Positions 14,556 through 62,110 of a DNA stretch of 64,000 nt are shown in pieces. Every line of letters begins with the position of its first letter. Within the stretch, counting starts at the first letter, position 1. The notes under the pieces are model-generated. The model had not been told where the DNA came from. It did no database searches and saw nothing but the letters and a program-made list of their open reading frames with translations. The stretch lies in contig CAKOOS010000005.1 of the NCBI GenBank assembly GCA_934098735.1, positions 4,358-68,357 on the forward strand, written 5' to 3'. The position numbers and the translations under genes are program-made. Source of the stretch: an uncultured Bacilli bacterium (lineage in GTDB: Bacteria; Bacillota_I; Bacilli_A; RF39; UBA660).

Positions 14556-14798
14556 TTATATCATTTTAATTTTAACATCACCAGTAATAATATCCCGGTA
14601 ACAAAAACTTTTTTCTTCTGAATTTACTAAAACAGTAAATATATTTGGATATATTTTATTTATAATTCCTTCAAATTTATTACATCTATTTCTTAATCCA
14701 TAAACCGTAATAATTATTTTTTTATTTTGCATTTTTTTGATATCACTTCGAACTAAATCAATATTCAAAATATCCTCCTTATCTTGGATAACCAACAT
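14556..14798 (-). CDS. veg: Veg family protein (DUF1021)
   Basis: 80 aa, downstream of yabG as in Bacillus. The 'IKKMQNKKIIITVYGLRNRCNKFEGII...YPNIFTVLV' pattern is Veg-like. Confidence 0.7.
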   Translation of the reverse strand: MLVIQDKEDILNIDLVRSDIKKMQNKKIIITVYGLRNRCNKFEGIINKIYPNIFTVLVNSEEKSFCYRDIITGDVKIKMI

Positions 14799-15555
14799 AC
14801 ATTAAGCCATTGCAAATAATACCACCCATGCCATCTTCTTTATATTTAGTTTTTTCTAATAGTTTTTTTAAATCAATTTCTTTATTACGTTCTGTTAAAG
14901 AAACAGTACTAGCTATAATCGCAGGATCAAGGGCATGAATATTTACTCTCTTAGGACTTGATGCAAAATTTGCCCCAGCTTTTATAAGTTCTTCATAATC
15001 ACTTTGACATGCCCCAGCAATAATAACTAACTTTTCATGACTTTTTTCAAAATTTCGAGCAGCTTTTACAGCTTTAACAAAATAACCAGAGTTCTTATAA
15101 TTATTTAAATCATTTATATCACCCTTTTTTTTATAAAAAGCATCATGTCCAGTAATGATAACTATATCTGGTTTATATTCTTTTAAAAGCAAAGGTAATT
15201 GTTCATAAATATTTTTTTCATTAATTTTTTTACCGATTGCCATGATACCATTACGTTTATAAAACTTTAAACATCTAGCTAAGTAATCTTCATCTGCATC
15301 GATATGCAGAACTTTAGCAGGTAAATAAAAATATTCTCCTCGAACAAGTAATTCATCTCTAATATCAATTTCATCTAATACATCATCATTAGTTATATTT
15401 TCTTCAATTTTTAAATCTTCTATATTAGCATCAGCAATAAGCCTAACTTCAACGCCTTTTAAATAAACAGTATTATTTTTAATATTAATTACTTTAAATA
15501 TAGTATCATTATTATAACTATTTCGAGAGACAAAAACTCCCTTTTCTATTTTCAA
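14779..15555 (-). CDS. yabG: Sporulation-specific protease YabG
   Basis: 'VIITGHDAFYKKKGD' and the overall YabG architecture; adjacent to rsmA and veg. Confidence 0.75.
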   Translation of the reverse strand: MKIEKGVFVSRNSYNNDTIFKVINIKNNTVYLKGVEVRLIADANIEDLKIEENITNDDVLDEIDIRDELLVRGEYFYLPAKVLHIDADEDYLARCLKFYKRNGIMAIGKKINEKNIYEQLPLLLKEYKPDIVIITGHDAFYKKKGDINDLNNYKNSGYFVKAVKAARNFEKSHEKLVIIAGACQSDYEELIKAGANFASSPKRVNIHALDPAIIASTVSLTERNKEIDLKKLLEKTKYKEDGMGGIICNGLMYVGYPR

Positions 15556-17787: not shown

Positions 17788-19312
17788 TTGTAATTATCCT
17801 ATTAAATAGTATTTCTGGTTTATTCAAAATTATATTTTCTTCTAAAATACCAAAATCATCTATGCTATCTATATCTCTATGCTGAGTATTTAATTGATCT
17901 AAAATCTTTTCACTAGTATCAGGAATAAATGGTTTTAATAAAATAGCACATATTCTTATACATTCTAAAATATTATATAAAACAGTTCTTAATCGATCTT
18001 GCTTACTTTCATCTTTTGCTAAAAGCCAAGGAGTTGTATCATCTATGTACTTATTACATTTTTTTAGGACTTCAAAAATTTCTTCCAAAGCCTCATTTAC
18101 TTTTAATTCATTCATTTTTATATCAACTATAGATTTAATTTTCAGAGCAGATGCAATTAAATCATCATCCAAAGCTTCGTGTACTTTAGGATTTAAAACT
18201 AAACCGTCAAAATATTTATGTCCCATACTTATAGTTCTATTTACAAGATTACCAAGATTATTTACTAAGTCAGTATTAGTTCTATTTACAAGGGCTTCTT
18301 CAGAAAAATTTCCATCATTTCCAAATGATACTTCTCGTAAAGCAAAATATCTTACAGCATCTACGCCATAATCATTTATATATTCTCTAGGATCTTTATA
18401 ATTACCTAATGATTTAGATATTTTACCACCATTAATAACTAGCCATCCATGTCCAAAAATTTGTTTTGGAAGAGGTAAATTTAAAGCCATTAAAAGCGCA
18501 GGCCATATTATGGCATGGAATCTTGTAATTTCTTTACCTACTAAATGCAAATCAGCAGGCCAATATTTTTTAAAAAGCTCACTATTTTCATTTGGATATC
18601 CAAGTGATGTAATATAATTTGATAGTGCATCTATCCAAACATAAATAACATGTTTGGGATCAAAATCAACTGGAATGCCCCATTTAACAGATGTTCTTGA
18701 AACACACAAATCTTCAAGTCCTGGTTTTATAAAATTATTTACAAGTTCATTTTTTCTAGATGTTGGCAAAATAAAATTAGGATTTTCTTCATATAACTTT
18801 ATAAGTTTATCTTGATATTTAGATAATCTAAAAAAGTAAGCTTCTTCAGTAACTAGTTTTACTTCTCTTCCACAATCAGGACATTTACCATCAGCTGCTT
18901 GTGTTTCTGTCCAAAAAGATTCACAAGGAACACAATAAAGTCCTTCATAAGATCCTTTATAAATATCACCTTGTTCATACAATTTTCTAAAAATAGCTTG
19001 AACACCTTTTACATGATATTCATCAGTTGTTCTAATAAAATAATCATAAGAAATATTTAAACTTTTCCATAAATTCTTTGCATTTTCTATAATTACATCA
19101 ACATATTCTTTTGGTGTAACTCCCTTTTCCTTAGCCTTTTGTTCAATTTTTAAACCATGTTCATCAGTGCCAGTTTGAAAGAAAACATCATAACCATTTA
19201 ACCTTTTATACCTTGCAATAGAATCAGCTATAATTGTTGTATAACAATGTCCTATATGAAAATCTGCACTAGGATAATATATTGGTGTAGTTATATAGTA
19301 TTTTTTATTCAT
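17780..19312 (-). CDS. metG: Methionine--tRNA ligase (short form without the C-terminal tRNA-binding domain)
   Basis: 'HIGH'-type 'DFHIGHCYT', the 'KISKS' motif and CxxC zinc knuckles. Confidence 0.92.
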   Translation of the reverse strand: MNKKYYITTPIYYPSADFHIGHCYTTIIADSIARYKRLNGYDVFFQTGTDEHGLKIEQKAKEKGVTPKEYVDVIIENAKNLWKSLNISYDYFIRTTDEYHVKGVQAIFRKLYEQGDIYKGSYEGLYCVPCESFWTETQAADGKCPDCGREVKLVTEEAYFFRLSKYQDKLIKLYEENPNFILPTSRKNELVNNFIKPGLEDLCVSRTSVKWGIPVDFDPKHVIYVWIDALSNYITSLGYPNENSELFKKYWPADLHLVGKEITRFHAIIWPALLMALNLPLPKQIFGHGWLVINGGKISKSLGNYKDPREYINDYGVDAVRYFALREVSFGNDGNFSEEALVNRTNTDLVNNLGNLVNRTISMGHKYFDGLVLNPKVHEALDDDLIASALKIKSIVDIKMNELKVNEALEEIFEVLKKCNKYIDDTTPWLLAKDESKQDRLRTVLYNILECIRICAILLKPFIPDTSEKILDQLNTQHRDIDSIDDFGILEENIILNKPEILFNRIITNE

Positions 19313-19797
19313 TATTCATTCCCTCTTTCTAAATTATTAGTACTGCCTATTCCTCCAACTCTGATATTATCTGTTTTATCATCATCAGTAACTAAAAACT
19401 TCATAAATACAGCTTGACAATAAGCAGTATTTTTCTTTATAACGTAGTCTTTATCTCCTTCATTTTGAAGAGATACAAATATATGACCTTCATTATCAAT
19501 ATTATTATAATAATCACTTTCTACAATACCAACTTGATTTGTAAGACGAACATTCCACTTAAAGCCCATGCTACTTCTTACAAAAATCATTAAAACTTCA
19601 TTATTATTAAAAGCAGCTTTATATCCCGTTGGCAACTTTATTATTTCTCCCGGTTTTATAGTATAATCATTTATTGCAAAAAAATCATACCCAGCACTGT
19701 TTTTAGTAGCTCTCTTAGGAAGCATATAACTATCATATAATGACTCATCAAAGTATTTTTTAAATTCTTCTTTACTTATTTTTTCAAAAAATCGCAA
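19312..19797 (-). CDS. dut: dUTP diphosphatase (trimeric dUTPase family)
   Basis: Five dUTPase motifs: 'SAGYDFF', 'VRSSMGF', 'GIVESDYY', the 'YCQAVF' region and 'RVGGIGSTNN'. The start was set at the TTG preceded by GAGGTGA; the track ORF starts 30 nt earlier. Confidence 0.75.
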   Translation of the reverse strand: MRFFEKISKEEFKKYFDESLYDSYMLPKRATKNSAGYDFFAINDYTIKPGEIIKLPTGYKAAFNNNEVLMIFVRSSMGFKWNVRLTNQVGIVESDYYNNIDNEGHIFVSLQNEGDKDYVIKKNTAYCQAVFMKFLVTDDDKTDNIRVGGIGSTNNLERGNE

Positions 19798-20045
19798 ATT
19801 TATCACCTCACAAAATAAAAAAACCATAAACTAAGGACGAGTATTACCCGCGGTACCACCTTAATTCATGATTTATCATGCATCTTCATTTATAACGTAA
19901 TTACCCGATTTCGACTCCAAAACCATGTTCAATATTTTCCTTTATTCTTTTCCACCAACCAAGAACTCTCTATAAAATTCTTAATATTTACTCTTTTCTT
20001 CAACGTCAAACTAAAAATAGTTTATCATAAAGCTTTTCATTATTC
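19798..20045 (-). promoter_or_regulatory. T-box riboswitch leader with a probable Met (AUG) specifier, upstream of dut-metG
   Basis: Minus-strand RNA contains AAUUAAGGUGGUACCGCGGG (about 19847-19866), a 13/14 match to the T-box consensus AGGGUGGNACCGCG. An upstream AGAGAG/GA-type element and an AUG lie in the putative specifier region (GAACAUGG). The last gene of the operon is metG. Confidence 0.6.
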
Positions 20046-30820: not shown

Positions 30821-30856
30821 AAAAACCTTCTTTTCACAAAAAAAGTGCACACAAAC

Positions 30857-30945
30857 ATAGACTGACGTGGCTGCTATTTTCCAATCCTGACCAGATTACA
30901 GCATATTTGTTGCACGCCTAAATACTATCAAAAATCTTATAAAAA
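30857..30945 (-). ncRNA. ffs: Small (4.5S-type) signal recognition particle RNA; boundaries approximate
   Basis: Minus-strand RNA folds as a long hairpin (GUGCAACAAAUAUG.../...CAUAGUUUGUGUGCAC). Its apical sequence UCUGGUCAGGAUUGGAAAAUAGCAGCC resembles the conserved SRP domain IV (GGUCAGGUCCGGAAGGAAGCAGCC). A U-run follows. SRP RNA lies beside tadA and dnaX in Bacillus. Confidence 0.5.
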
Positions 30946-30987
30946 GTCAATAAAAATTAGATTTTCATATATTATGTTAACCAAAAT

Positions 30988-31001
30988 ATTTCCTGGGAAA
31001 T
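30988..31001. promoter_or_regulatory. Noc-binding-site-like palindrome ATTTCCTGGGAAAT (one mismatch to the NBS consensus)
   Basis: Direct read. The B. subtilis NBS consensus is ATTTCCCGGGAAAT. Confidence 0.55.
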
Positions 31002-31039
31002 AAAATATATGGTTTTTTCCAATATTATGTAAACCAATT

Positions 31040-31053
31040 ATTTCCCGGGAAAT
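31040..31053. promoter_or_regulatory. Noc-binding-site palindrome ATTTCCCGGGAAAT (perfect consensus)
   Basis: Direct read of a perfect 14-bp palindrome identical to the published NBS consensus. Confidence 0.65.
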
Positions 31054-31111
31054 AATTTAAGTTTAATTTTTTGCCAAAAGTACGTTATTTTTGCAAGTAA
31101 ACAAACGTTCG

Positions 31112-31127
31112 TGTTTCACGTGAAACA
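31112..31127. promoter_or_regulatory. parS: parS site 1, TGTTTCACGTGAAACA
   Basis: Perfect 16-bp palindrome matching the Firmicute parS consensus TGTTNCACGTGAAACA. Confidence 0.8.
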
Positions 31128-31302
31128 TATTAACAAGTTATCAACTCTATCTACTTAAAAATAGCAACAAAATACTAACACGAAAAATGTTATATAAAAC
31201 AAACACATTATTAATAATTTTAATTTAATTTTGTACATCTATAGATAACACAGCTATATAATAAAAATTAATTATATAAAAATATAAACAAGTTATCAAC
31301 AA

Positions 31303-31318
31303 TGTTTCACGTGAAACA
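31303..31318. promoter_or_regulatory. parS: parS site 2, TGTTTCACGTGAAACA, immediately preceded by the DnaA-box-like TTATCAACA
   Basis: Identical perfect palindrome. A TTATCAACA 9-mer abuts it at about 31293-31301. Confidence 0.8.
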
Positions 31319-31571
31319 TTAACAACAATATTTTATTGTAGACTAACAAATTAGCAACAATTACTAAATTGTTTAAATTAATTATTATTAATATAATTTA
31401 ATTATAAATATCATTGCAATTGTTATCCTTTATTTAAAAATTAAAACCATTTAATTATTAATAAGCTTGTATTATATTTTACTTAGCTTAATTATTATTA
31501 TTTATTAATATTAATTAATATATTATTATCTATCAAATAAATAAAATTATAATTATTATTATTATTAACTA

Positions 31572-31587
31572 TGTTTCACGTGAAACA
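31572..31587. promoter_or_regulatory. parS: parS site 3, TGTTTCACGTGAAACA
   Basis: Third identical copy within 480 bp. Confidence 0.8.
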
Positions 31588-31713
31588 TTTTAAATTGCAC
31601 TTTTAAATAATTTTATGTAACTAAAAAAGGAAAACTATTAATTGTTTTCCTTTTTCTATTAATTCCTTATTAAATCAATTATTTTTTTAATTCTTGTATA
31701 TACAAAGTATATA

Positions 31714-37304: not shown

Positions 37305-37733
37305 TTATTTTCTTGATAAATAAACCCACCATAATCTACTACATTTAAGCAGTTGATTATTTATAATAGTGTAACTAATATTAAGATCCAATTTTAAACC
37401 ATTTTTAAAGTTAATAACTATTAAGTTATCCACTTTTTCTAAGTTATTTATCATGTTAAAATTTATCCAAATAACCTCCATTTTAATATAAAGCGGAAAA
37501 AATATTAAACAATTTTTTTCATTAATAATAATTGGTAACTTATATTTTCCCCCGAGCAAACTACTACTTCCCTGAACTCTCCCTTTAAAAGAACTTCCAT
37601 AATAAACACAACTATTATTCAAAATACAACTTAAAACATTACCATTAAATGAATATTCTTCACTAACTTCTTTTACTAAAGTACTATAACTACACGCCCT
37701 AATATAAAGAGTATCTTGCGTAATCGTATACAT
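37305..37733 (-). CDS. ComK-family (competence transcription factor-like) protein, short form
   Basis: 'CVYYGSSFKGRVQGSSSLLG...KLPIIINEKNCLIFFPL' parallels the B. subtilis ComK core 'CVFYVN...FFGSSYAGRKAGT...KPPIMVDPSNQIFLFPT'. It has its own promoter-like TTGACA-N18-TAGTAT. Confidence 0.45.
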   Translation of the reverse strand: MYTITQDTLYIRACSYSTLVKEVSEEYSFNGNVLSCILNNSCVYYGSSFKGRVQGSSSLLGGKYKLPIIINEKNCLIFFPLYIKMEVIWINFNMINNLEKVDNLIVINFKNGLKLDLNISYTIINNQLLKCSRLWWVYLSRK

Positions 37734-38941: not shown

Positions 38942-39057
38942 ATTTTTTTCCTTCTTTCTTTTATTTATTTTTTAATATTTATATTAATAGTGTTGATAAT
39001 GTTGATAAGTTTTTTTTTCTAGATATATTCCTTACAAAATAACTTTTCTTATCAACA
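38942..39057. promoter_or_regulatory. oriC: oriC part 2 (dnaA-dnaN intergenic): AT-rich DNA unwinding element plus three DnaA-box-like 9-mers
   Basis: TGTTGATAA at about 38991-38999 and 39000-39008, and TTATCAACA at about 39049-39057. An AT tract TTTTATTTATTTTTTAATATTTATATTAATA lies between them. Confidence 0.7.
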
Positions 39058-40401
39058 TTATTGTAACTTCATCTTTATTTCTTTCAACATGTTATTAAGA
39101 TTATCATTTACTTCTAACTCTTCCTTTATTTTATCACATGCTGTAGATACTGTCGAGTGATCTCTTCCTCCGAATTCAAGGCCAATTTTAGCCAAGTTTT
39201 CATCTGTTTCAACCCGGCATAAATACATGGCTATATGCCTTGGTCTTACAACTGTATTAGTTCTTCTTTTACTTTTTAAATCATCAACGGATATTTTAAA
39301 GTACTCTGCTACGGCACTTTGAATTGATGCTATTGAATTGTTGATAAATATATTGGTATTAACATAATCCTTTAAAGCCTCATTAGCAAAATCAAGGGTT
39401 ATTTTATCCGGTACCATCATTGCTGTATATGCTAATAATCTATTAATTGTCCCTTCTATATGTCTTACATCATTTACACATGAATTAGCTATATATTCAA
39501 TAACATCTTCATTCAATTTATTTTCTATGCTTGTATTTTTAATCTTTGCCTTAATTATTTCGCACCTAAGATTAAAGTCTGGAGGATATATATCAACGGG
39601 TAATCCCCACATAAATCTACTTCGTAATCTCTCTTCTATCTTTTTTAAATCATCAGGACTTTTATCACTACTTATGATTATTTGTTTATTTGCTTGATGT
39701 AAAGCATTAAATGTGTGAAAAAATTCTTGTTGAGTTCTCTCAGCTCCAACTAAAAACTGTATATCATCAATTATTAAAACATCAACATTTCGGTACTTAT
39801 TTTTAAATTCATTTGCATAATTTAAATTATTATTACTAGTTGCAATTCCTGTAAATTCAGTCATAAATTCATTACTAGTTGTATAAAGAACCTTAAGTTT
39901 AGAATGATCTTTAATATAATTTCCAATTGCTTGCATTAAATGCGTTTTTCCAAGACCACTTCTTCCATATATAAATAATGGATTATGAATAGTACCAGGT
40001 GCTTCTGCAACAGCTCTTGCAGCTACAAAAGCTAACCTATTTGAATTACCTACAATATAAGAATCAAATGTAAATTTTGGATTTAAATTAGTATTCCACT
40101 CTACTTCTTTTTCCAATACTTCTTCTTCTACAACTGGCTGAACAAAAGTTTCAACTTCATCCTCAGTAATATATTTAAATGTATAGTTTATTCCAGTCAT
40201 TGAGAAAAACGATGCATCAATTATATCAGCATAAGTCTCAGTAAGCATCTGTTTATGAATTTCCATTGGAACTTTTATTGTTACTACATTGTTGACAATT
40301 GAAAGTAGTTCAAGTTTTGAAAACCAAATAGTATATGCATTTTGACTTACTTGTGTTTGAATATCATTTAAAAAACGCAAAAAAAGCTCATCTGTTTTCA
40401 T
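39058..40401 (-). CDS. dnaA: Chromosomal replication initiator protein DnaA
   Basis: AAA+ Walker A 'GRSGLGKTHL' and a domain IV HTH. Confidence 0.95.
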   Translation of the reverse strand: MKTDELFLRFLNDIQTQVSQNAYTIWFSKLELLSIVNNVVTIKVPMEIHKQMLTETYADIIDASFFSMTGINYTFKYITEDEVETFVQPVVEEEVLEKEVEWNTNLNPKFTFDSYIVGNSNRLAFVAARAVAEAPGTIHNPLFIYGRSGLGKTHLMQAIGNYIKDHSKLKVLYTTSNEFMTEFTGIATSNNNLNYANEFKNKYRNVDVLIIDDIQFLVGAERTQQEFFHTFNALHQANKQIIISSDKSPDDLKKIEERLRSRFMWGLPVDIYPPDFNLRCEIIKAKIKNTSIENKLNEDVIEYIANSCVNDVRHIEGTINRLLAYTAMMVPDKITLDFANEALKDYVNTNIFINNSIASIQSAVAEYFKISVDDLKSKRRTNTVVRPRHIAMYLCRVETDENLAKIGLEFGGRDHSTVSTACDKIKEELEVNDNLNNMLKEIKMKLQ

Positions 40402-40722
40402 ACCTCACCCCACTAACAAATTTCATAACTAAATTTTATACCATTTTCTGTTAAAAAAAAAGAGTAAATTTTAAAAAACTTATTATTCACAAAATTATCA
40501 ACGACAAAAGTCCCTAAAATTCGACATTTATTATAGTTATCAACACTATCAACAAATTTAAACTAACAATAAGACTTATTCACAAATTATAAACAATAAG
40601 GATTTAATAAAATGTTGTTAATTTTGTGGATTATTTTGTAAAGTTATCAACAAATTATCCACAATCTCCAAAAAACGATAGTTATCAACCATAATAGATG
40701 ATATAATAATAAAGGTGTAAAA
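40402..40722. promoter_or_regulatory. oriC: oriC part 1: cluster of about 9 DnaA boxes upstream of dnaA. One is a perfect TTATCCACA at about 40655-40663; the others are TTATCAACA/TTATTCACA variants
   Basis: Direct read of repeated TTATC[AC]ACA 9-mers in both orientations. Confidence 0.75.
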
Positions 40723-45638: not shown

Positions 45639-47507
45639 ATGTTTGATTGTATAGTTGTTGGTGGTGGTCATGCTGGAATCGAAGCCTCTCATATAGCTGC
45701 CAAAATGGGATGTAAAACATTACTAGTAACAGGAAATATAAAAAATATTGGTGATATGCCATGTAATCCATCTATTGGAGGGACTGCTAAAGGAATAATT
45801 GTACGTGAAGTAGATGCTCTCGGAGGATTAATGGGCAAAATTGCAGATAAATCCCATTTACAAATAAAAATGTTAAATAACTCTAAGGGCCCAGCTGTAA
45901 GAAGCTTAAGAGCTCAAGCAGATAAAATAACATATCCACAAAATATGCAAAATTATTTAAGTAAAATGGAAAATTTAACTATTAAAGAAGCAATTATAGA
46001 AGACTTAATTTTAGAAAATGGAGTTGTTAACGGTGTTATTACTGAAGATGGTGAAAAAATATACGGAAAAACAGTTATTTTAACAACAGGAACATATTTG
46101 TGTGGCAATATTTTAGTGGGTAGTGAGAATACCCCTGGAGGACCTCACGGTGAAAAAAGAAGTAATTATTTATCGCAAAAATTAAAAGAATATGGTTTAA
46201 AAATACTTAGACTTAAAACTGGGACCCCACAAAGAATAAAAAAAGATTCTATTGACTTTAGTGTCATGCAAAAAGAAAATGGGGATAATACACTTTGGAC
46301 ATTTTCTTATGACGATAAACCTTCTTATAATGTTGATGAACAAAGCTCTTGTTATTTATTGTATACTAATGAAAAAACTCATCAAATAATTAGAGATAAT
46401 TTAGATAAATCAGCAATGTATGGAGGATATGCAACAGGTGTTGGACCTAGATATTGTCCATCTATTGAAGATAAAATAGTGCGCTTTAGTGATAAAGAAA
46501 GGCATCAATTGTTTCTTGAACCAGAAAGTTTATATTATGATGATTGGTATTTACAAGGTTTTTCAACTAGCATGCCAAGAGATATTCAGTTACAAATGGT
46601 TCATAGTTTGCATGGTCTTGAAAATGCCATTATAACTAAATATGCCTATGCAATTGAATACGATGCCATAGATCCGTTGCAAATTAAGCCTTCATTAGAA
46701 AATAAAATAATTGGTAATCTTTTTACAGCAGGTCAAATAAATGGTACGAGTGGTTATGAAGAAGCTGCAGGTCAAGGAATAATTGCAGGAATAAATGCCG
46801 TTTTAAAAGTTCAAGGAAAAAAACCCCTTATTTTAAAAAGAAGTGACGCTTATATCGGAGTTTTAATTGATGATTTAGTTACAAAAGGAACTATTGAACC
46901 ATATCGTATGTTAACAAGTAGGGCAGAATTTCGCCTTCTTTTAAGATCTGATAACGCCGATTTACGTTTGAGACATCTAGCTAAAGAAATAGGAACTATT
47001 AATGATGAACAATATCAAAGATTACTAACAAAAGAAAAAAATATTAAAGAACTAACAGAATATTTAAAAAATAATGTCTTGCATTTAACAGATGAAGTGA
47101 AGAGTATTTTTTCAAGAGAAAATAAAAATATTCCTTTAACTGGAATAAACTATTATGATTTATTAAAAAGACCAGAAATAGATTTAAAATTTATAGAAAA
47201 TTTTATAACATTAGATTATTCTGATGAAGTAAAAGAACAAGTAGAAATAAATGCTAAATATTCTGGATATATACAAAAAGCCTATAAAGAAGTTGAAAAA
47301 TTATTAAAACTTGAAGATAAACAAATTCCTGATGATATTGATTATAAAAAAGTTACCAATCTTGCTAGCGAAGCTAAGCAAAAACTTGAAAAGATAAGAC
47401 CAAAAACTATCGCTCAAGCTTCAAGAATTAGTGGAGTTAATCCTGTTGATATATCAGTTTTGACTGTTTACTTAAAAAAGGAATATAGTAAAGATGACAA
47501 TAAATGA
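45639..47507 (+). CDS. mnmG: tRNA uridine 5-carboxymethylaminomethyl modification enzyme MnmG (GidA)
   Basis: FAD-binding 'VVGGGHAG'; typical length. Confidence 0.95.
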   Translation: MFDCIVVGGGHAGIEASHIAAKMGCKTLLVTGNIKNIGDMPCNPSIGGTAKGIIVREVDALGGLMGKIADKSHLQIKMLNNSKGPAVRSLRAQADKITYPQNMQNYLSKMENLTIKEAIIEDLILENGVVNGVITEDGEKIYGKTVILTTGTYLCGNILVGSENTPGGPHGEKRSNYLSQKLKEYGLKILRLKTGTPQRIKKDSIDFSVMQKENGDNTLWTFSYDDKPSYNVDEQSSCYLLYTNEKTHQIIRDNLDKSAMYGGYATGVGPRYCPSIEDKIVRFSDKERHQLFLEPESLYYDDWYLQGFSTSMPRDIQLQMVHSLHGLENAIITKYAYAIEYDAIDPLQIKPSLENKIIGNLFTAGQINGTSGYEEAAGQGIIAGINAVLKVQGKKPLILKRSDAYIGVLIDDLVTKGTIEPYRMLTSRAEFRLLLRSDNADLRLRHLAKEIGTINDEQYQRLLTKEKNIKELTEYLKNNVLHLTDEVKSIFSRENKNIPLTGINYYDLLKRPEIDLKFIENFITLDYSDEVKEQVEINAKYSGYIQKAYKEVEKLLKLEDKQIPDDIDYKKVTNLASEAKQKLEKIRPKTIAQASRISGVNPVDISVLTVYLKKEYSKDDNK

Positions 47508-48213
47508 GTTTATAGAAAGTGTTAAAAAGCTGGGAATTAAAATAAGTGATGAAGAGTTAAATAAATTGGACATTTATGTCAAATTTTTATTAGAGTATAA
47601 CGAGCACACTAATTTGACTGCCATAAAAAAAGAAGAAGATGTTTATTTAAAGCATTTTTATGATAGTTTAACAATAAGTTACGTCATTAATTTGGAAGAG
47701 GAAAAAATTCTTTTAGATATCGGAACAGGGGCAGGTTTTCCAGGTATGATTTTAAAAATATTTTTTCCAAATTTAAAAGTAACCCTTTTAGATAGTAATA
47801 ATAAAAAAACAAAATTTTTAGAGAAACTAAGAGATAAGCTAAACTTAAATGACGTCGAAATAATAAATGACAGAGTAGAAAATCTAGCTAAAACACGTTT
47901 AAATTATTATGATGTTGTAACCGCTAGAGCAGTTACTAACATGACTGTTTTAACTGAACTTGCTATGCCACTTGTTAAAGAAGAAAAATATTTTATAGCA
48001 CTAAAGGGAAGTAATATAAATGAAATTGAAGATAGCTATTATGCTATTTCTGTAATGCATGGAAAAATAGTAAAATCTAAAGAATTTGAATTAGCTAAAG
48101 AAGCTGGAAAAAGAAATATAGTAAAAATTAAAAAGCTTAATAAGACAAATATAAATGAAATAAGATCTTATGATAAAATTATTAAAAAGCCGTTGCAAAA
48201 AAAGATTAAATAG
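47494..48213 (+). CDS. rsmG: 16S rRNA (guanine527-N7)-methyltransferase RsmG (GidB)
   Basis: 'DIGTGAGFPG' SAM motif; follows mnmG. Confidence 0.9.
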   Translation: MTINEFIESVKKLGIKISDEELNKLDIYVKFLLEYNEHTNLTAIKKEEDVYLKHFYDSLTISYVINLEEEKILLDIGTGAGFPGMILKIFFPNLKVTLLDSNNKKTKFLEKLRDKLNLNDVEIINDRVENLAKTRLNYYDVVTARAVTNMTVLTELAMPLVKEEKYFIALKGSNINEIEDSYYAISVMHGKIVKSKEFELAKEAGKRNIVKIKKLNKTNINEIRSYDKIIKKPLQKKIK

Positions 48214-48226
48214 TTTAGAATAAAAG

Positions 48227-49354
48227 ATGATAGGGTTGATAGATGTGAATAATATGCAAATGGAAAATACCGTTTTACAAGTTCCTATAGAGGATATAAT
48301 ACCAAACCGTTTTCAACCACGGTTATCTTTTGATGATTCTTCTTTAAATGATTTAGCCTCATCAATTAAACAACATGGAATAATTCAACCTCTTGTTTTA
48401 AGAAGAAAAAATGACAAATATGAAATAATTGCGGGAGAAAGAAGATATAAAGCTGCGCGTATGGCTGGTTTAATTACTGTTCCTGCTATAATATCAAATT
48501 TAGACGATAATGCTTCAGCAGAAGTTGCAATCGTAGAAAATATTCAAAGAAAAGATTTAACAGCAATTGAAGAAGCAAAATCTTATCAAGCTCTTTTAGA
48601 TAAAGGCTATATGACACAAGAAGAATTAGCTCGCAAGATGGGCTTATCACAGTCAGCAATTTCTAATAAACTTAGGTTACTTTCACTTGATGAAGAAGTA
48701 CAAAATGCTATACTTGCTGAAAAAATATCTGAAAGACATGCTAGAACACTTTTAAAAGTTCCGAGTCATGAAAAACAAAAAGAATTATTAAATAAAGTAA
48801 TCAAAGAAAGAATGACAGTTAAACAATTAGAAGATGAAATAAAAAAGAATGAAGGAAGTGCAAAAGAAGTGAATCAAGAAGAAATTCCGATTATAAATTC
48901 AACTCCAGATATTAACAATGTTATAAATAATTCAGTAGATATTAATAAAATTACTAATAGTCCAGAGGAATTATTTACGGAAGAAGTAACTCCAAAAACT
49001 GTAACTCCTGAAAAATTCTTTTCTAATCCCGAAAAAATGCCTAATAAATTCTTTAATTTTTTGGAAGATACAGCAGCTAATATGAACGTTCATGAAGAAA
49101 TTCCTATTATTGAAATTGCACCAGAAGAAAAAACAAAAGATAATAATTCAATTACAAAAACTGATAATATTGAAATGTTAGATGATTTTATAGTTCCAAC
49201 AACAGCTGAAGTAAAAGTAGAAGATGACTACTTAGATTCAGTATTAAAGACTATTCGTGGATTAAATTTAGATAGTGATAAAGTAGTTGTTAAGGAAATG
49301 AATTTACCAACAGAATATCATATCAATATCATTATAAAAAAAGATAAAATCTAG
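48227..49354 (+). CDS. noc: ParB-family protein, Noc (nucleoid occlusion)-like, with a long low-complexity linker; start uncertain
   Basis: ParB box 'IIPNRFQPR' and 'GERRYKAA'. The HTH region 'GLSQSAISNKLRLL...KISERHARTLL' matches Noc (GQSTIANKLRLL, KITERHARALI) better than Spo0J (SRPHIANHLRLL). It sits at the rsmG-noc position. Confidence 0.7.
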   Translation: MIGLIDVNNMQMENTVLQVPIEDIIPNRFQPRLSFDDSSLNDLASSIKQHGIIQPLVLRRKNDKYEIIAGERRYKAARMAGLITVPAIISNLDDNASAEVAIVENIQRKDLTAIEEAKSYQALLDKGYMTQEELARKMGLSQSAISNKLRLLSLDEEVQNAILAEKISERHARTLLKVPSHEKQKELLNKVIKERMTVKQLEDEIKKNEGSAKEVNQEEIPIINSTPDINNVINNSVDINKITNSPEELFTEEVTPKTVTPEKFFSNPEKMPNKFFNFLEDTAANMNVHEEIPIIEIAPEEKTKDNNSITKTDNIEMLDDFIVPTTAEVKVEDDYLDSVLKTIRGLNLDSDKVVVKEMNLPTEYHINIIIKKDKI

Positions 49355-49375: not shown

Positions 49376-49720
49376 TTATTTATTAGTAAATTTTTGTAAG
49401 TCAAAATTATAAAGAATTATTTGTGACTCATTTATAGTAAGATAAGTATTTTCATCAGATACTTTATAATCTTTAAAGTTATTTTTAAGTTTAAAAAGAA
49501 CTTCATATTGAGGAGTAATTTGTACCATTCGTCCTTTTAAAATATTATCTTGTTCAGTATCTACAAAAAAAATTATATTCTTATTAGTTAAAATAATTTG
49601 ACTCATAAAGTAATTGTTATCAAATTTTATTTGAACATTTGCTTCTTCTTTTAAAATTTCTTCATCATTTAGTTTAAAATCATAGTTATACATTATATCA
49701 CCTACTAAAATTATATCCAA
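49376..49720 (-). CDS. Hypothetical protein, 114 aa
   Basis: Clean ORF with no recognisable motif. Confidence 0.35.
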   Translation of the reverse strand: MDIILVGDIMYNYDFKLNDEEILKEEANVQIKFDNNYFMSQIILTNKNIIFFVDTEQDNILKGRMVQITPQYEVLFKLKNNFKDYKVSDENTYLTINESQIILYNFDLQKFTNK

Positions 49721-49742: not shown

Positions 49743-51689
49743 TTAATTTTCTTCTTTACTAACATATTGAGTGGGACTTACATTAGGTTCAGATCCCTTG
49801 ACATAATAAAATAAAGTACTTTTATTTTTATTATCAGTTACATTTCCTGTTACTGCATCAAAAGGAATAGCAATTACATTTTTAGGTATTTCATACCAAG
49901 AATTGTCTTTATCTTTTAAAACATACTCAATTGTACTTGCCCATGCTTTTTTAGTTTGATTTCTAGTTTTACTTTCTACAGGTTTATTATCATCGTAACC
50001 AGTCCAAGTAATAACTAGAGCATTAGAGTCATAACCAACTATCCAGTAATCAGTATCAGTAGATCCTGTTTTTATAGCATATTTATGAGTTAGTTTTGAA
50101 GCAATATTTAGAGCAGTTGGTGTTGTATAATCGATAAATGCTTCATTAGTCGTAGATGTTAACATTTCATTTAAAATAAAAGTATAATTGGGATTAAGCA
50201 CTAATTTTCTTTCATCAACATGTTCATACAAAACATTACCATCCAAATCTTCTATTTTTTGTATAAAATATAATTCTTTCTTATATCCACCAGAAGCAAA
50301 AGTATTATATCCAGTTGCAAAGTCTAGGATATTTATCTCACTAGTTCCAAGTGGTAAAGAAGCAACTTCAGATAGTGAGGCATTTATTCCTGTTCGCTTA
50401 GCTACTTCGATCATTTTATCAACACCCAAAAATAAATTTGTTTTGATAGCATAAATATTATCAGATAAAGCAACTGCAGCAGCCATGGTTATATCTTTAC
50501 TAGCATAAATATTTCCAGCATTTTGTGGAGAATATGTTTTGTTGTTGGATAAATGAAATGTCGTTTCCTCACTTCTAAAAGTACTAGACATCGTCATATT
50601 GTTTTCAAGAGCAGCGTAATACAAAAAAGGTTTCATAGTTGAGCCAACTTGTCTTTTGCTTTTAAGGGCACGATTATATTGACTTTTTGCATAATTTACA
50701 CCACCAGTAAGGGCCATAACTTTTCCTGTGCTAGGCTCTACGATTACACTGGCAACTTGCAAATCATCATCTGTCAAATTTGCTAGTATATTTTCTTCTA
50801 AATTTTTTTGCACTTCTAAATCGAGATTAGTATATATTTTTAATCCTCCAGATTCTATCAAAGAAGATGGTATAGACTTTATATTATTTAGTTCATTTAA
50901 AACAGCATCTTGGTAATACATCACCATTTGAAGATTATTACTTTTTGTTTGACCATAAATATCTATTTTTTCTTTAAATAAGTTATTCAACATAGCTTCA
51001 TCAATATAACCATTATTAAACATAGCTTGAGCTACAATTTTAGCTCTTTTAATAGATTCATCGTAATTAGAAACTGGATTATACCGAGATGGATTTTTAG
51101 GAATACCTGCAAGTATTATAGCTTCTTCAAGAGTTAATTCACTTGGCTTTTTATTAAAATAATAACTTGAAGCATTTACTATTCCCATATTTCCTTGACC
51201 ATAATTTATAGTATTTAAATATCCCGCAAGTATATCATCTTTATCATAATGAACCTCTAACTCTAGAGTTAAAAAAGCTTCTTCAATTTTCCTAGACCAA
51301 GTTTGATTAAAGTCTAGATAAAGATTTTTTATATATTGTTGTGATATCGTAGAGGCACCTTGAACTATACCTTTATTTTTAATATTTATAAACATGGCTT
51401 TAGCTATTCGCATATAATCAAAGCCATTATGTTTATAAAAATTTTTATCTTCGACAGCTATAACAGCTTCAATTAAATAATCGCTTATTTCATCAATATT
51501 AGCCCATTCATTACTTCTAGATCCCTGATAAAGTAATTCGTTTTTATTATCATATATATATAAGCTACCACTTGTTTTTAGATTTAGTTTAGGACTAAAA
51601 TAAGCATAAGTATAAAGTCCCACTATTATAACCACAAAAGTAATAAATAAAAATATTAAACTTTTTATTATAAAACGCATAGTTTTCAA
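49743..51689 (-). CDS. Class A penicillin-binding protein (transglycosylase plus transpeptidase)
   Basis: GT51 motifs 'EDKNFYKHNGFD' and 'GASTISQQ'; transpeptidase 'STMKP' and 'KTG'. Confidence 0.85.
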   Translation of the reverse strand: MKTMRFIIKSLIFLFITFVVIIVGLYTYAYFSPKLNLKTSGSLYIYDNKNELLYQGSRSNEWANIDEISDYLIEAVIAVEDKNFYKHNGFDYMRIAKAMFINIKNKGIVQGASTISQQYIKNLYLDFNQTWSRKIEEAFLTLELEVHYDKDDILAGYLNTINYGQGNMGIVNASSYYFNKKPSELTLEEAIILAGIPKNPSRYNPVSNYDESIKRAKIVAQAMFNNGYIDEAMLNNLFKEKIDIYGQTKSNNLQMVMYYQDAVLNELNNIKSIPSSLIESGGLKIYTNLDLEVQKNLEENILANLTDDDLQVASVIVEPSTGKVMALTGGVNYAKSQYNRALKSKRQVGSTMKPFLYYAALENNMTMSSTFRSEETTFHLSNNKTYSPQNAGNIYASKDITMAAAVALSDNIYAIKTNLFLGVDKMIEVAKRTGINASLSEVASLPLGTSEINILDFATGYNTFASGGYKKELYFIQKIEDLDGNVLYEHVDERKLVLNPNYTFILNEMLTSTTNEAFIDYTTPTALNIASKLTHKYAIKTGSTDTDYWIVGYDSNALVITWTGYDDNKPVESKTRNQTKKAWASTIEYVLKDKDNSWYEIPKNVIAIPFDAVTGNVTDNKNKSTLFYYVKGSEPNVSPTQYVSKEEN

Positions 51690-56030: not shown

Positions 56031-56543
56031 GTGAAAAAAATAGTTATAGTTCTTTTTATAGTTATGTGTTTACTTCTTTTTTCTAAGAAAGATACAAATA
56101 ATGTAATAATTCCTAAAGATGCAATTCGTTTTAGGATTATAGCAAATAGTAATAAAATTGAAGATCAAAAAACTAAATTAGATTTAAAAACTGATCTAGA
56201 GCCAATTATTAATAACATTTTATCAACATCAAAAGACATAAATGAGACGAGAGAAAACATTAAAGGAAATTTAAATGAAATTAAAAGTACTATAGAAAAA
56301 TATGATTCTAATTATAAAATAAATTTTGGTAGTAATTATTTTCCAGAAAAAAACTATAAAGGCGTAACTTATAAAGCAGGTAATTATGAATCACTAGTCA
56401 TAACTTTAGGTAATGGTCTTGGAGATAACTGGTGGTGTGTTTTATTTCCACCTTTATGTTTATTGGAAGCTAAAGAAGAAGATTATGATGACTATACTTA
56501 CTCATTTTTTATAAAAGAAATATTAAATAATAATTCTAAATAG
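56031..56543 (+). CDS. spoIIR: Stage II sporulation protein R
   Basis: Signal peptide, 'IRFRIIANSN' and 'GDNWWCVLFPPLC' SpoIIR motifs; prfA-prmC-spoIIR linkage as in Bacillus. Confidence 0.75.
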   Translation: MKKIVIVLFIVMCLLLFSKKDTNNVIIPKDAIRFRIIANSNKIEDQKTKLDLKTDLEPIINNILSTSKDINETRENIKGNLNEIKSTIEKYDSNYKINFGSNYFPEKNYKGVTYKAGNYESLVITLGNGLGDNWWCVLFPPLCLLEAKEEDYDDYTYSFFIKEILNNNSK

Positions 56544-60191: not shown

Positions 60192-60286
60192 ATTAATATT
60201 TTGCCTTGCTAATAAAAAAAAATATGATATAATAGTTAAGAAACGAATTACTATGTCATGAACTTGACATGGCGGAAGGAGAGAGT

Positions 60287-61192: not shown

Positions 61193-62110
61193 ATGAAAAT
61201 AAAAAATAGATATTTAATAATATTAATTATCTTATTAAGCTTAATAGCTATAAAAAGCAGTCCCAAAAAGACTGCTTCTTTTAATAATGACGAAAAAACT
61301 AAAGAAGAAAAAAAAGAACCGTTTAAAATAAATGTTGTAAATAAAAAAACAGGTGAAATTATAAATTTGGATTTAGAAAACTATATAATTGGGGTTGTGG
61401 CTGGCGAAATGCCCGCTTCATTTGATGTTGAAGCTTTAAAAGCTCAAGCCATAGCTTCTAGAACTTATGCTCTATATAAAATTAAAAATAACAAGACTTT
61501 AACAACTGATATAAGTACACAAGTATATATAACTAATGAAGATATGCAAAATAAATGGAAAGAAAACTATAATTTATATTATGAAAAAATAAAAAATGCT
61601 GTTTTAGAAACAAAGGATTTAGTCATTACTTATAATGGTGATTTGATAAGTAGTTACTATTTTGCAATGTCAAATGGTAAAACAGAGGATTCAAAATTAG
61701 TATTTGGAACTGATGTTGAATACTTAAAAAGTGTTGAATCTAATGAGAATATAGAAACTAAAAAAACAATTTCAATGTCTAAAAGTGATTTTTGTACTAA
61801 ACTAAGCATTGATTGCCAAGATATAGTCATAAAAAACGAAGAAAAAACATCATCGGGTAGAATTCAGAGCATAGTTATCAACAATAAAATATTTAAAGGA
61901 ACCGAAATAAGAACTTTGCTTGGATTAAGGTCAACTGACTTTAATATATCATTAGATGAAAATAACATAATAATTACCACTAATGGTTATGGCCACGGTG
62001 TTGGAATGAGTCAATATGGAGCCAATGCATTAGCTAAAAGTGGTTATAATTATGAAGAAATTTTAAAGCATTATTATCAAAATACAAATATTACCAAAAT
62101 TAATGTATAA
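61193..62110 (+). CDS. spoIID: Stage II sporulation protein D (lytic transglycosylase, SpoIID/LytB domain)
   Basis: 'ALKAQAIASRTYAL' and 'GYGHGVGMSQYGA' motifs. Confidence 0.85.
   Translation: MKIKNRYLIILIILLSLIAIKSSPKKTASFNNDEKTKEEKKEPFKINVVNKKTGEIINLDLENYIIGVVAGEMPASFDVEALKAQAIASRTYALYKIKNNKTLTTDISTQVYITNEDMQNKWKENYNLYYEKIKNAVLETKDLVITYNGDLISSYYFAMSNGKTEDSKLVFGTDVEYLKSVESNENIETKKTISMSKSDFCTKLSIDCQDIVIKNEEKTSSGRIQSIVINNKIFKGTEIRTLLGLRSTDFNISLDENNIIITTNGYGHGVGMSQYGANALAKSGYNYEEILKHYYQNTNITKINV

Follow-up and report, generated by a model that had tools for sequence, protein, structure and literature searches.

Firmicutes keep the genes noc, soj and spo0J at an origin-proximal place, and spo0J is usually found near the origin in these bacteria. 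In Bacillus Noc, the apo form of the N-terminal domain hides a membrane helix, and CTP binding is proposed to release it (PMC8429893). The DNA site that is recognized depends on a few residues: Q173 and R201 read two base pairs specific for the Noc-binding site (NBS) and require a lysine at position 179 or 184, either one being enough, and R173 was invariant in all parS-specific variants of a deep mutational scan (Jalal et al., 2020; PMC7383237). Here, we analyzed a stretch of 64,000 nucleotides from an uncultured Bacilli bacterium (contig CAKOOS010000005.1, positions 4,358 to 68,357; in the following, the window), which carries a noc-like gene of the ParB family (48245..49354, + strand, 369 aa) immediately after rsmG and ~8 kb from the probable origin of replication (oriC). 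We favor, with a probability of about 65%, the reading that the encoded protein is orthologous to Noc and belongs to a lineage of uncultured gut Bacilli with low GC content (CAG:460 / CAG:609 / 'Ca. Onthocola' group), that it is NBS-specific while the parS sites are served by another ParB, and that a helix in its linker serves as the anchor.

The assignment to Noc is based on the position after rsmG, the best profile match and the best structural matches. Pfam detected both ParB_N (PF02195, residues 15-107, 114.8 bits) and HTH_ParB (PF17762, residues 109-208, 114.7 bits) above the gathering thresholds, and TIGR00180 scored 191 bits with a cut-off of 58. The top NCBIfam family is TIGR04285 (nucleoid_noc) with 280.2 bits over model positions 2-227 of 255. 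The three best matches in the Protein Data Bank (PDB) are also Noc structures (7NFU and 7NG0, 195 bits each; 7OL9, 180 bits), followed by Spo0J (6SDK, 173 bits) and other ParBs (135-164 bits), and identity to Noc amounts to 47% over 194 aa. An earlier note on this DNA had placed a ParB-family gene at the rsmG-noc position, which agrees with the intact reading frame, the two domains and rsmG (47494..48213, + strand) directly upstream. Like Noc (YyaA) of Bacillus subtilis and Geobacillus (PDB 7NFU, 7NG0, 7OL9, 6Y93), the protein follows rsmG and combines ParB_N, HTH_ParB and a small C-terminal domain.

An AlphaFold2 (AF2) model, built from an alignment of 22 orthologues, is confident for the N-terminal and helix-turn-helix (HTH) domains together (residues 10-204). 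The N-terminal CTP-binding domain (residues 10-100, 48272..48544, + strand) was delimited by Pfam ParB_N, the alignment and an AF2 confidence score (pLDDT) of ~80, and is followed by the HTH DNA-binding domain (residues 101-204, 48545..48856, + strand). The CTP motifs known from Noc, GERR and ENxQR, are present as GERRYK (48434-48451, + strand) and, after it, ENIQRK (Box III). The residues matching R89 and N121 of Noc, which lie in GERR and ENxQR, respectively, are conserved; both are essential for CTP binding in Noc (PMC8429893). By analogy with the work on B. subtilis, the protein would nucleate at NBS, bind CTP, close into a sliding clamp and spread as Bacillus Noc does. The N-terminus reads MNNMQMENTVLQVP (MNNMQMENTVLQVPIEDIIPNRFQPR, as counted from the GTG at 48245) and, as the earlier note had recognized, lacks the basic amphipathic helix that targets Noc to the membrane: the highest hydrophobic moment within residues 1-20 is only 0.35, and the pattern of a membrane-targeting sequence (MTS) at the N-terminus was found in 0 of 81 orthologues. 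A ParA-stimulating basic peptide is missing as well, the extension at the N-terminus being short and without basic character.

The specificity residues were located in an alignment with Noc and Spo0J of B. subtilis, using the positions 173/179/184/201 in Caulobacter numbering (Jalal et al.). The protein shows Q-K-S-R at these positions, compared to Q-K-K-R in Noc and R-H-T-G in B. subtilis Spo0J, and the HTH domain also contains ERHAR and the recognition segment SQSAISNKLRLLS (48647-48685, + strand). This alignment bears out the Noc-type residues that the earlier note had read from the HTH. With S at position 184 the NBS signature is incomplete, but Q, K and R, the residues needed for function, are in place. 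The residues that read parS, R173 together with a small residue (G/S/T/C) at 201, are replaced by Q and R. Under the rules of Jalal et al. (2020), we infer from these residues that the protein reads NBS and not parS. The related loci show Q-K-(N/T/S/E)-R in 81 of 83 cases and L-K-N-R in the other two. Two divergent orthologues of 293-320 aa (L080, 10001-10963; L081, 10004-10885) carry L at position 173 and keep GERRYRA; they may have a different target site.

Both site classes were searched for in the window with a 16-mer scan, and both are present in the spacer between gyrA and tadA. Three perfect parS sites (31112..31127, TGTTTCACGTGAAACA; 31303..31318; and 31572..31587), where 0.06 are expected by chance, lie 16.6 kb from the noc-like gene, in line with the ~17 kb given in the earlier note; the one at 31572 is 127 bp 3' of the gyrA stop codon. 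That note had missed a pair of NBS in the same spacer (0.01 expected): a perfect copy (TATTTCCCGGGAAATA, 31039..31054), 57 bp beyond the parS at 31112, and a copy with one mismatch (TATTTCCTGGGAAATA, 30987..31002), which is 52 bp away and has a similar flank. Judged from this arrangement, the NBS pair would bring clamps of Noc next to the zone where ParB loads, ~8.5-9.7 kb from oriC. Clamps bound there could tether the origin region, or could bound the ParB domain ahead of the promoter of the signal recognition particle (SRP) RNA gene (30836-30921, - strand), which is located beyond the NBS pair. A promoter for this gene (TTGACT-17-TAGTAT) is found ~35 bp beyond the second NBS.

The same spacer was compared in four relatives, which were reached via GyrA homologues with 92-93% identity; a TadA query of metagenome contigs returned just two unrelated loci (35-36% identity). 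The spacer spans 30922-31713 in the window, 12509-13878 in L087, 12512-13888 in L088, 12503-13857 in L089 and 12503-13970 in L090. In contrast to the three parS copies of the window, each spacer of the relatives contains 6-9 copies with at most two mismatches (4-6 of them perfect), ~60-220 bp apart and with one or two perfect NBS after them, so that the number of parS copies varies among close relatives. The spacer DNA is AT-rich (~20% GC) and shows no conservation between the parS sites. An origin of the arrays by recent tandem duplication was ruled out, as Tandem Repeats Finder detected no array-length repeat. Since the intervening DNA is neither conserved nor a tandem repeat, the parS sites are kept by selection, and a parS reader has to exist in these cells. 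In all five genomes examined, NBS directly adjoins the parS array.

Two further sequence elements accompany the sites. The flank (a/t)ttggtt(a/t)acataatat follows each NBS in all five genomes (30960-31060 in the window). Furthermore, the DnaA-box-like 9-mer TGTTGATAA (at most one mismatch) is located 1-5 bp after parS in 18 of 31 cases and in constant orientation; in the window, such 9-mers are found at 31293-31301, where TTATCAACA is directly beside the second parS, and at 31138-31145. TTATCAACA boxes form clusters in the oriC of this organism, and the window contains 19 of them, compared to 2.5 expected. These pairs suggest combined binding units for ParB and DnaA.

Scanning a single genome for each species yielded 80 loci with 48-85% identity to the protein, and all of these relatives come from uncultured gut bacteria. 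In every species sampled, the gene is located after rsmG and by itself. The records are named Firmicutes bacterium CAG:460, Clostridium sp. CAG:609, 'Ca. Onthocola' or uncultured Bacilli, Tenericutes and Mycoplasma metagenome-assembled genomes (MAGs). 'Ca. Onthocola' is placed in Bacilli incertae sedis by NCBI and probably corresponds to the GTDB order RF39. Within 1.32 Mb of related loci around the gene, all of it origin-proximal DNA, 23 perfect NBS 16-mers were found, but neither parS nor a hybrid of parS and NBS. The Noc-type protein and its cognate NBS are conserved together across the lineage. Upstream of noc, in the direction of oriC, the perfect NBS of distant lineage members recur at ~2.9 kb (~2.93 kb in L012, L014, L017, L019, L022 and L025), at ~4.1 kb (L043, L051, L055, L057, L062, L070 and L076) and at 9.2-9.8 kb (L021, L024, L026, L033 and L050). 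For RF39, Tenericutes and Erysipelotrichia, a literature search on Noc or ParB returned nothing relevant and no description of this variant.

Between the HTH domain and the C-terminus, the protein contains a disordered linker (residues 205-325, 48857..49219, + strand; pLDDT below 50 at residues 205-254 and 283-325) that is rich in E, N, I, T, K and P. The 170 aa proposed in the earlier note have to be corrected to ~120 aa, and its description as low-complexity sequence was right about the E/N/P-rich composition but not about a plain spacer: the linker carries two strongly conserved motifs. Motif 1 (PNKFFNFLEDTAANM, residues 266-280, 49040..49084, + strand) contains a predicted helix (residues 267-278 in the AF2 model) that is flanked by disorder, and motif 2 (NIEMLDDF, residues 308-315, 49166..49189, + strand) is a short acidic-hydrophobic stretch. 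The C-terminal domain (residues 326-369, 49220..49354, + strand; residues 326-364 in the AF2 model) consists of one helix and two strands with pLDDT ~70, aligns to the C-terminus of B. subtilis Noc and is presumed to be the dimerization domain.

Linker length varies widely among the orthologues, whose total length ranges from 293 to 606 aa, and the linkers are divergent apart from the motifs. Motif 1 is invariant as PNKFFNFLED(S/T)AANM in the 22 closest sequences; FFNF[LF] is found in 57 of 81 orthologues and the core x[KR]FF in 75, whereas motif 2, (N)IE(M/L)LD(D/F), is found in 48. A search of 1.84 billion representative sequences with the segment from the motif to the C-terminal domain gave eight matches, two full-length proteins (387 and 461 aa) and otherwise fragments, and among these eight there was neither a recognizably different protein carrying the module nor a lead to a paralogue. 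The hydrophobic moment of motif 1 (0.56-0.62) is the maximum of the linker and comparable to the 0.56 of the B. subtilis Noc MTS (SFSRFFGLGEK), with a residue-by-residue correspondence of R/K-F-F-G/N-L/F-G/L-E. We therefore put forward motif 1 tentatively as a membrane anchor: the amphipathic helix N-K-F-F-N-F-L-E-D would replace the lost N-terminal anchor and would link Noc-DNA complexes with either the membrane or a partner protein. The hiding of the helix as in Bacillus cannot work here, because motif 1 sits 60 residues past the DNA-binding domain and far from the CTP-binding domain.

Several observations weigh against the reading of an NBS-specific Noc with a linker anchor and a separate ParB. 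The TIGR04285 score of 280 is below the curated NCBI cut-off of 315, and the third arginine of GERRxR is a lysine, the lineage reading GERR[YF]K. Position 184 is never K in the lineage, and K171, a DNA contact common to ParB and Noc, is L, V or I, so DNA recognition may differ from that of the model proteins. No second ParB-family gene was seen in ~64 kb of this genome and ~20 kb per relative, all near the origin, and NBS beside parS in every case is also expected if one protein used both sites. As to the anchor, AF2 confidence at the linker helix is just 50-55, motif 1 has a net charge of -1, unlike most membrane-targeting helices, and its likeness to the Noc MTS is limited to ~9 residues.

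The earlier note had left it undecided whether a Spo0J is encoded elsewhere or a single protein serves both site classes. Its observation that the soj-spo0J partner is missing was confirmed: no second ParB and no Soj/ParA were detected in the window (tblastn, E<=1; Pfam scans of 30 other open reading frames), and in 84 of 84 loci, which cover 80 species, the 10 kb on either side of the orthologue contain neither Soj nor another ParB-family gene. The genes rpsF-ssb-rpsR, which are neighbors of spo0J in B. subtilis and a possible landmark, were found neither in the window nor in the loci of the relatives. The absence of a second ParB and of Soj, the direct contact of NBS and parS array in five genomes, the small genomes of the group (an orthologue was found on a 1.26-Mb contig) and the unusual residues at the DNA contacts 171 and 184 are what a sole ParB-family protein of the lineage would explain, loading at NBS and the adjacent parS and merging partition or SMC loading with nucleoid occlusion. 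We consider this unlikely, as the scan of Jalal et al. (2020; PMC7383237) leaves no room for Q173 in a parS binder, R173 being invariant among its parS-specific variants, the HTH otherwise closely copies that of Noc, and the site classes are discrete, with zero hybrids, 23 perfect NBS and zero parS in the 1.32 Mb around the gene. A quite improbable extension of the idea dispenses with a canonical ParB in the whole lineage and lets a Noc-type clamp, anchored by the internal FFNFLE helix, act at a composite origin-proximal element of parS/DnaA-box and NBS; it would unite nucleoid occlusion with centromere function and the tethering of the origin and break the rule that Q173 excludes parS binding. 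It is very unlikely that the protein is a true Spo0J/ParB orthologue which acquired Noc-like residues by drift or convergence once noc had been lost. Similarity is nearly equal (tblastn: 180 bits for B. subtilis Spo0J, 184 for Noc, with Spo0J ahead in some loci) and PGAP names the orthologue just 'ParB/RepB/Spo0J family partition protein', but the gene occupies the place of noc directly after rsmG, the best HMM and PDB matches are Noc, the Q/K/R triad and ERHAR occur with conserved cognate NBS, and both the N-terminal ParA-stimulating peptide and an adjacent parA are missing. Two proteins are the more economical reading, since parS and NBS form discrete classes without hybrids; together with Q173 and the cognate NBS, this favors a Spo0J encoded elsewhere, and a separate ParB very probably serves the parS sites. 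Such a canonical ParB is predicted to be encoded outside the origin region, from where it would serve the conserved parS arrays, and ParA may be absent, as in Staphylococcus aureus.

For the linker, the closest competitor of the anchor keeps the NBS-binding Noc but lets the motifs dock proteins, for example a division, replication or condensin component, so that the protein would depend on a partner for its action or would work away from the membrane. Protein-docking motifs are typically laid out in this way, as short, conserved and separate stretches (here two) within a disordered linker; acidic residues follow motif 1 (net charge -1), and the acidic-hydrophobic IEMLDDF of motif 2 presumably resembles known peptide ligands. 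On the other hand, motif 1 is similar to S-R-F-F-G-L-G-E-K of the Noc MTS and matches it in hydrophobic moment, the membrane helix of SepF is likewise followed by acidic residues, and no partner was identified. We regard docking as less than likely but almost on a par with the membrane anchor, and some other role of motif 1 takes the rest of the probability. That the protein is merely a decaying remnant with anchor and function lost is hardly credible: the N-terminal MTS is gone, the corresponding B. subtilis variant NocNdelta10 is inactive (PMC8429893) and the genomes are reduced, but 81 distinct orthologues have intact reading frames with nearly invariant N-terminal and HTH domains and conserved linker motifs, and perfect NBS sites are conserved as well.

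Compared to Noc of B. subtilis and Geobacillus, the favored Noc orthologue shares Q173/K179/R201, ERHAR, the GERR and ENxQR motifs and perfect TATTTCCCGGGAAATA sites in the genome. It differs from them by the absence of the N-terminal 10-aa membrane-targeting helix and of the alpha-2 segment, by the exchanges K184 to S/T/N, K171 to L/V/I and GERRxR to GERRxK, by a much longer linker (~120 aa) than in B. subtilis, which carries the two conserved motifs, by the missing soj-spo0J downstream and by a score below the TIGR04285 cut-off. With B. subtilis Spo0J (PDB 6SDK) it shares the fold and the CTP-clamp family, and canonical parS sites are clustered near oriC in this genome; unlike canonical ParB/Spo0J, it has Q for R173, R for G201, no ParA-stimulating peptide and no adjacent parA. 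Motif 1, with a basic residue and an FF-x-F-L face, resembles the Noc N-terminus, the C-termini of MinD and FtsA and the N-terminus of SepF; this is a resemblance only, as motif 1 is internal, has net acidic flanks and is only a candidate for membrane binding. Noc of S. aureus retains the N-terminal amphipathic helix, unlike the present protein, and the parB of this species is not known to be adjacent to noc. S. aureus, also a Firmicute, lacks part of the partition system, as the lineage studied here may do: Noc and ParB are present, ParA is absent (bioRxiv 10.64898/2026.03.06.710092), whereas here Noc was seen without ParA and a separate ParB is predicted.

In the lineage, represented by 81 distinct orthologues, the CTP domain and the HTH that reads NBS are retained along with perfect NBS sites, yet it lacks the N-terminal helix on which the published Noc mechanism depends (PMC8429893). 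If motif 1 is the anchor, membrane binding would have to be under another form of control, or under none; if it is just a relocated motif, the protein would be a modest extension of the family and no new kind of system. The layout with dense parS, DnaA-box-like 9-mers and NBS 8.5-9.7 kb from oriC offers a compact natural test bed for ParB, Noc and DnaA side by side.

The reading frame of the gene is uninterrupted at 48227-49354 (+ strand) directly 3' of rsmG, as proposed in the earlier note, but its ATG at 48227, where the mechanically called frame opens, is not the start we favor. Translation most likely begins at the GTG at 48245 (369 aa), because a Shine-Dalgarno-like AAGGGTTGAT is located 9-11 nt 5' of this codon and kept across relatives, and because the in-frame codons 5' of the GTG reach a stop in four related species (L009, L010, L012 and L016). 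Gene callers also give 369 aa for the 99%-identical relative P0002. The upstream 'GLI' codons were considered as a remnant N-terminal peptide and rejected, as they are the ribosome-binding site. A -35-like TTGCAA at the 3' end of rsmG (48160-48244 region) is conserved as well and, together with the Shine-Dalgarno-like AAGGGTTGAT, suggests that noc has its own promoter.

Downstream, a convergent gene of 114 aa without a Pfam family (49376..49720, - strand), which is conserved in relatives, is followed by a class A penicillin-binding protein gene (49743..51689, - strand; Transgly and Transpeptidase found in the orthologue). This matches the hypothetical gene and penicillin-binding protein, instead of soj-spo0J, of the earlier note, and the order hypothetical gene, penicillin-binding protein, argS, rpoE and prfA is kept in the four closest loci. 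Several MAG records label the lineage Tenericutes or Mycoplasma, yet it carries this class A enzyme. Genes for the sporulation proteins YabG (a protease), SpoIIR and SpoIID are located at 14779-15555 (- strand), 56031-56543 (+ strand) and 61193-62110 (+ strand), and BofA is encoded in relatives (L087, 16883-17071). Based on the class A enzyme and the sporulation genes, the lineage is walled and probably spore-forming.

The window has a G+C content of 25%, and its GC skew switches sign near 40 kb. There, dnaA (39058-40401, - strand) is flanked to the left by dnaN, a ComK-family gene, recF, gyrB and gyrA, and to the right, on the + strand, by a metallophosphoesterase gene, rpmH (assigned from the gene order of relatives), rnpA, yidC, jag, an HTH gene, mnmE, mnmG and rsmG. 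TTATCAACA, TTATTCACA and TTATCCACA boxes cluster upstream of dnaA (40402-40722) and in the dnaA-dnaN spacer (38942-39057), at the skew switch, and these two regions are the probable oriC.

The ComK-family gene (142 aa, 37305-37733, - strand; PF06338 in orthologues) lies between dnaN and recF, the position occupied by yaaA in B. subtilis. A gene of 212-224 aa without a Pfam family is located between rpmH and the metallophosphoesterase gene in L087 (1875-2537, - strand), L088-L090 and L001-L004, but is absent from the window. Further features of the window are a T-box leader (19830-20012, - strand) upstream of a dUTPase-family reading frame (19312-19827) and metG, and an L31 ribosomal-protein leader at 60251-60281 (+ strand).

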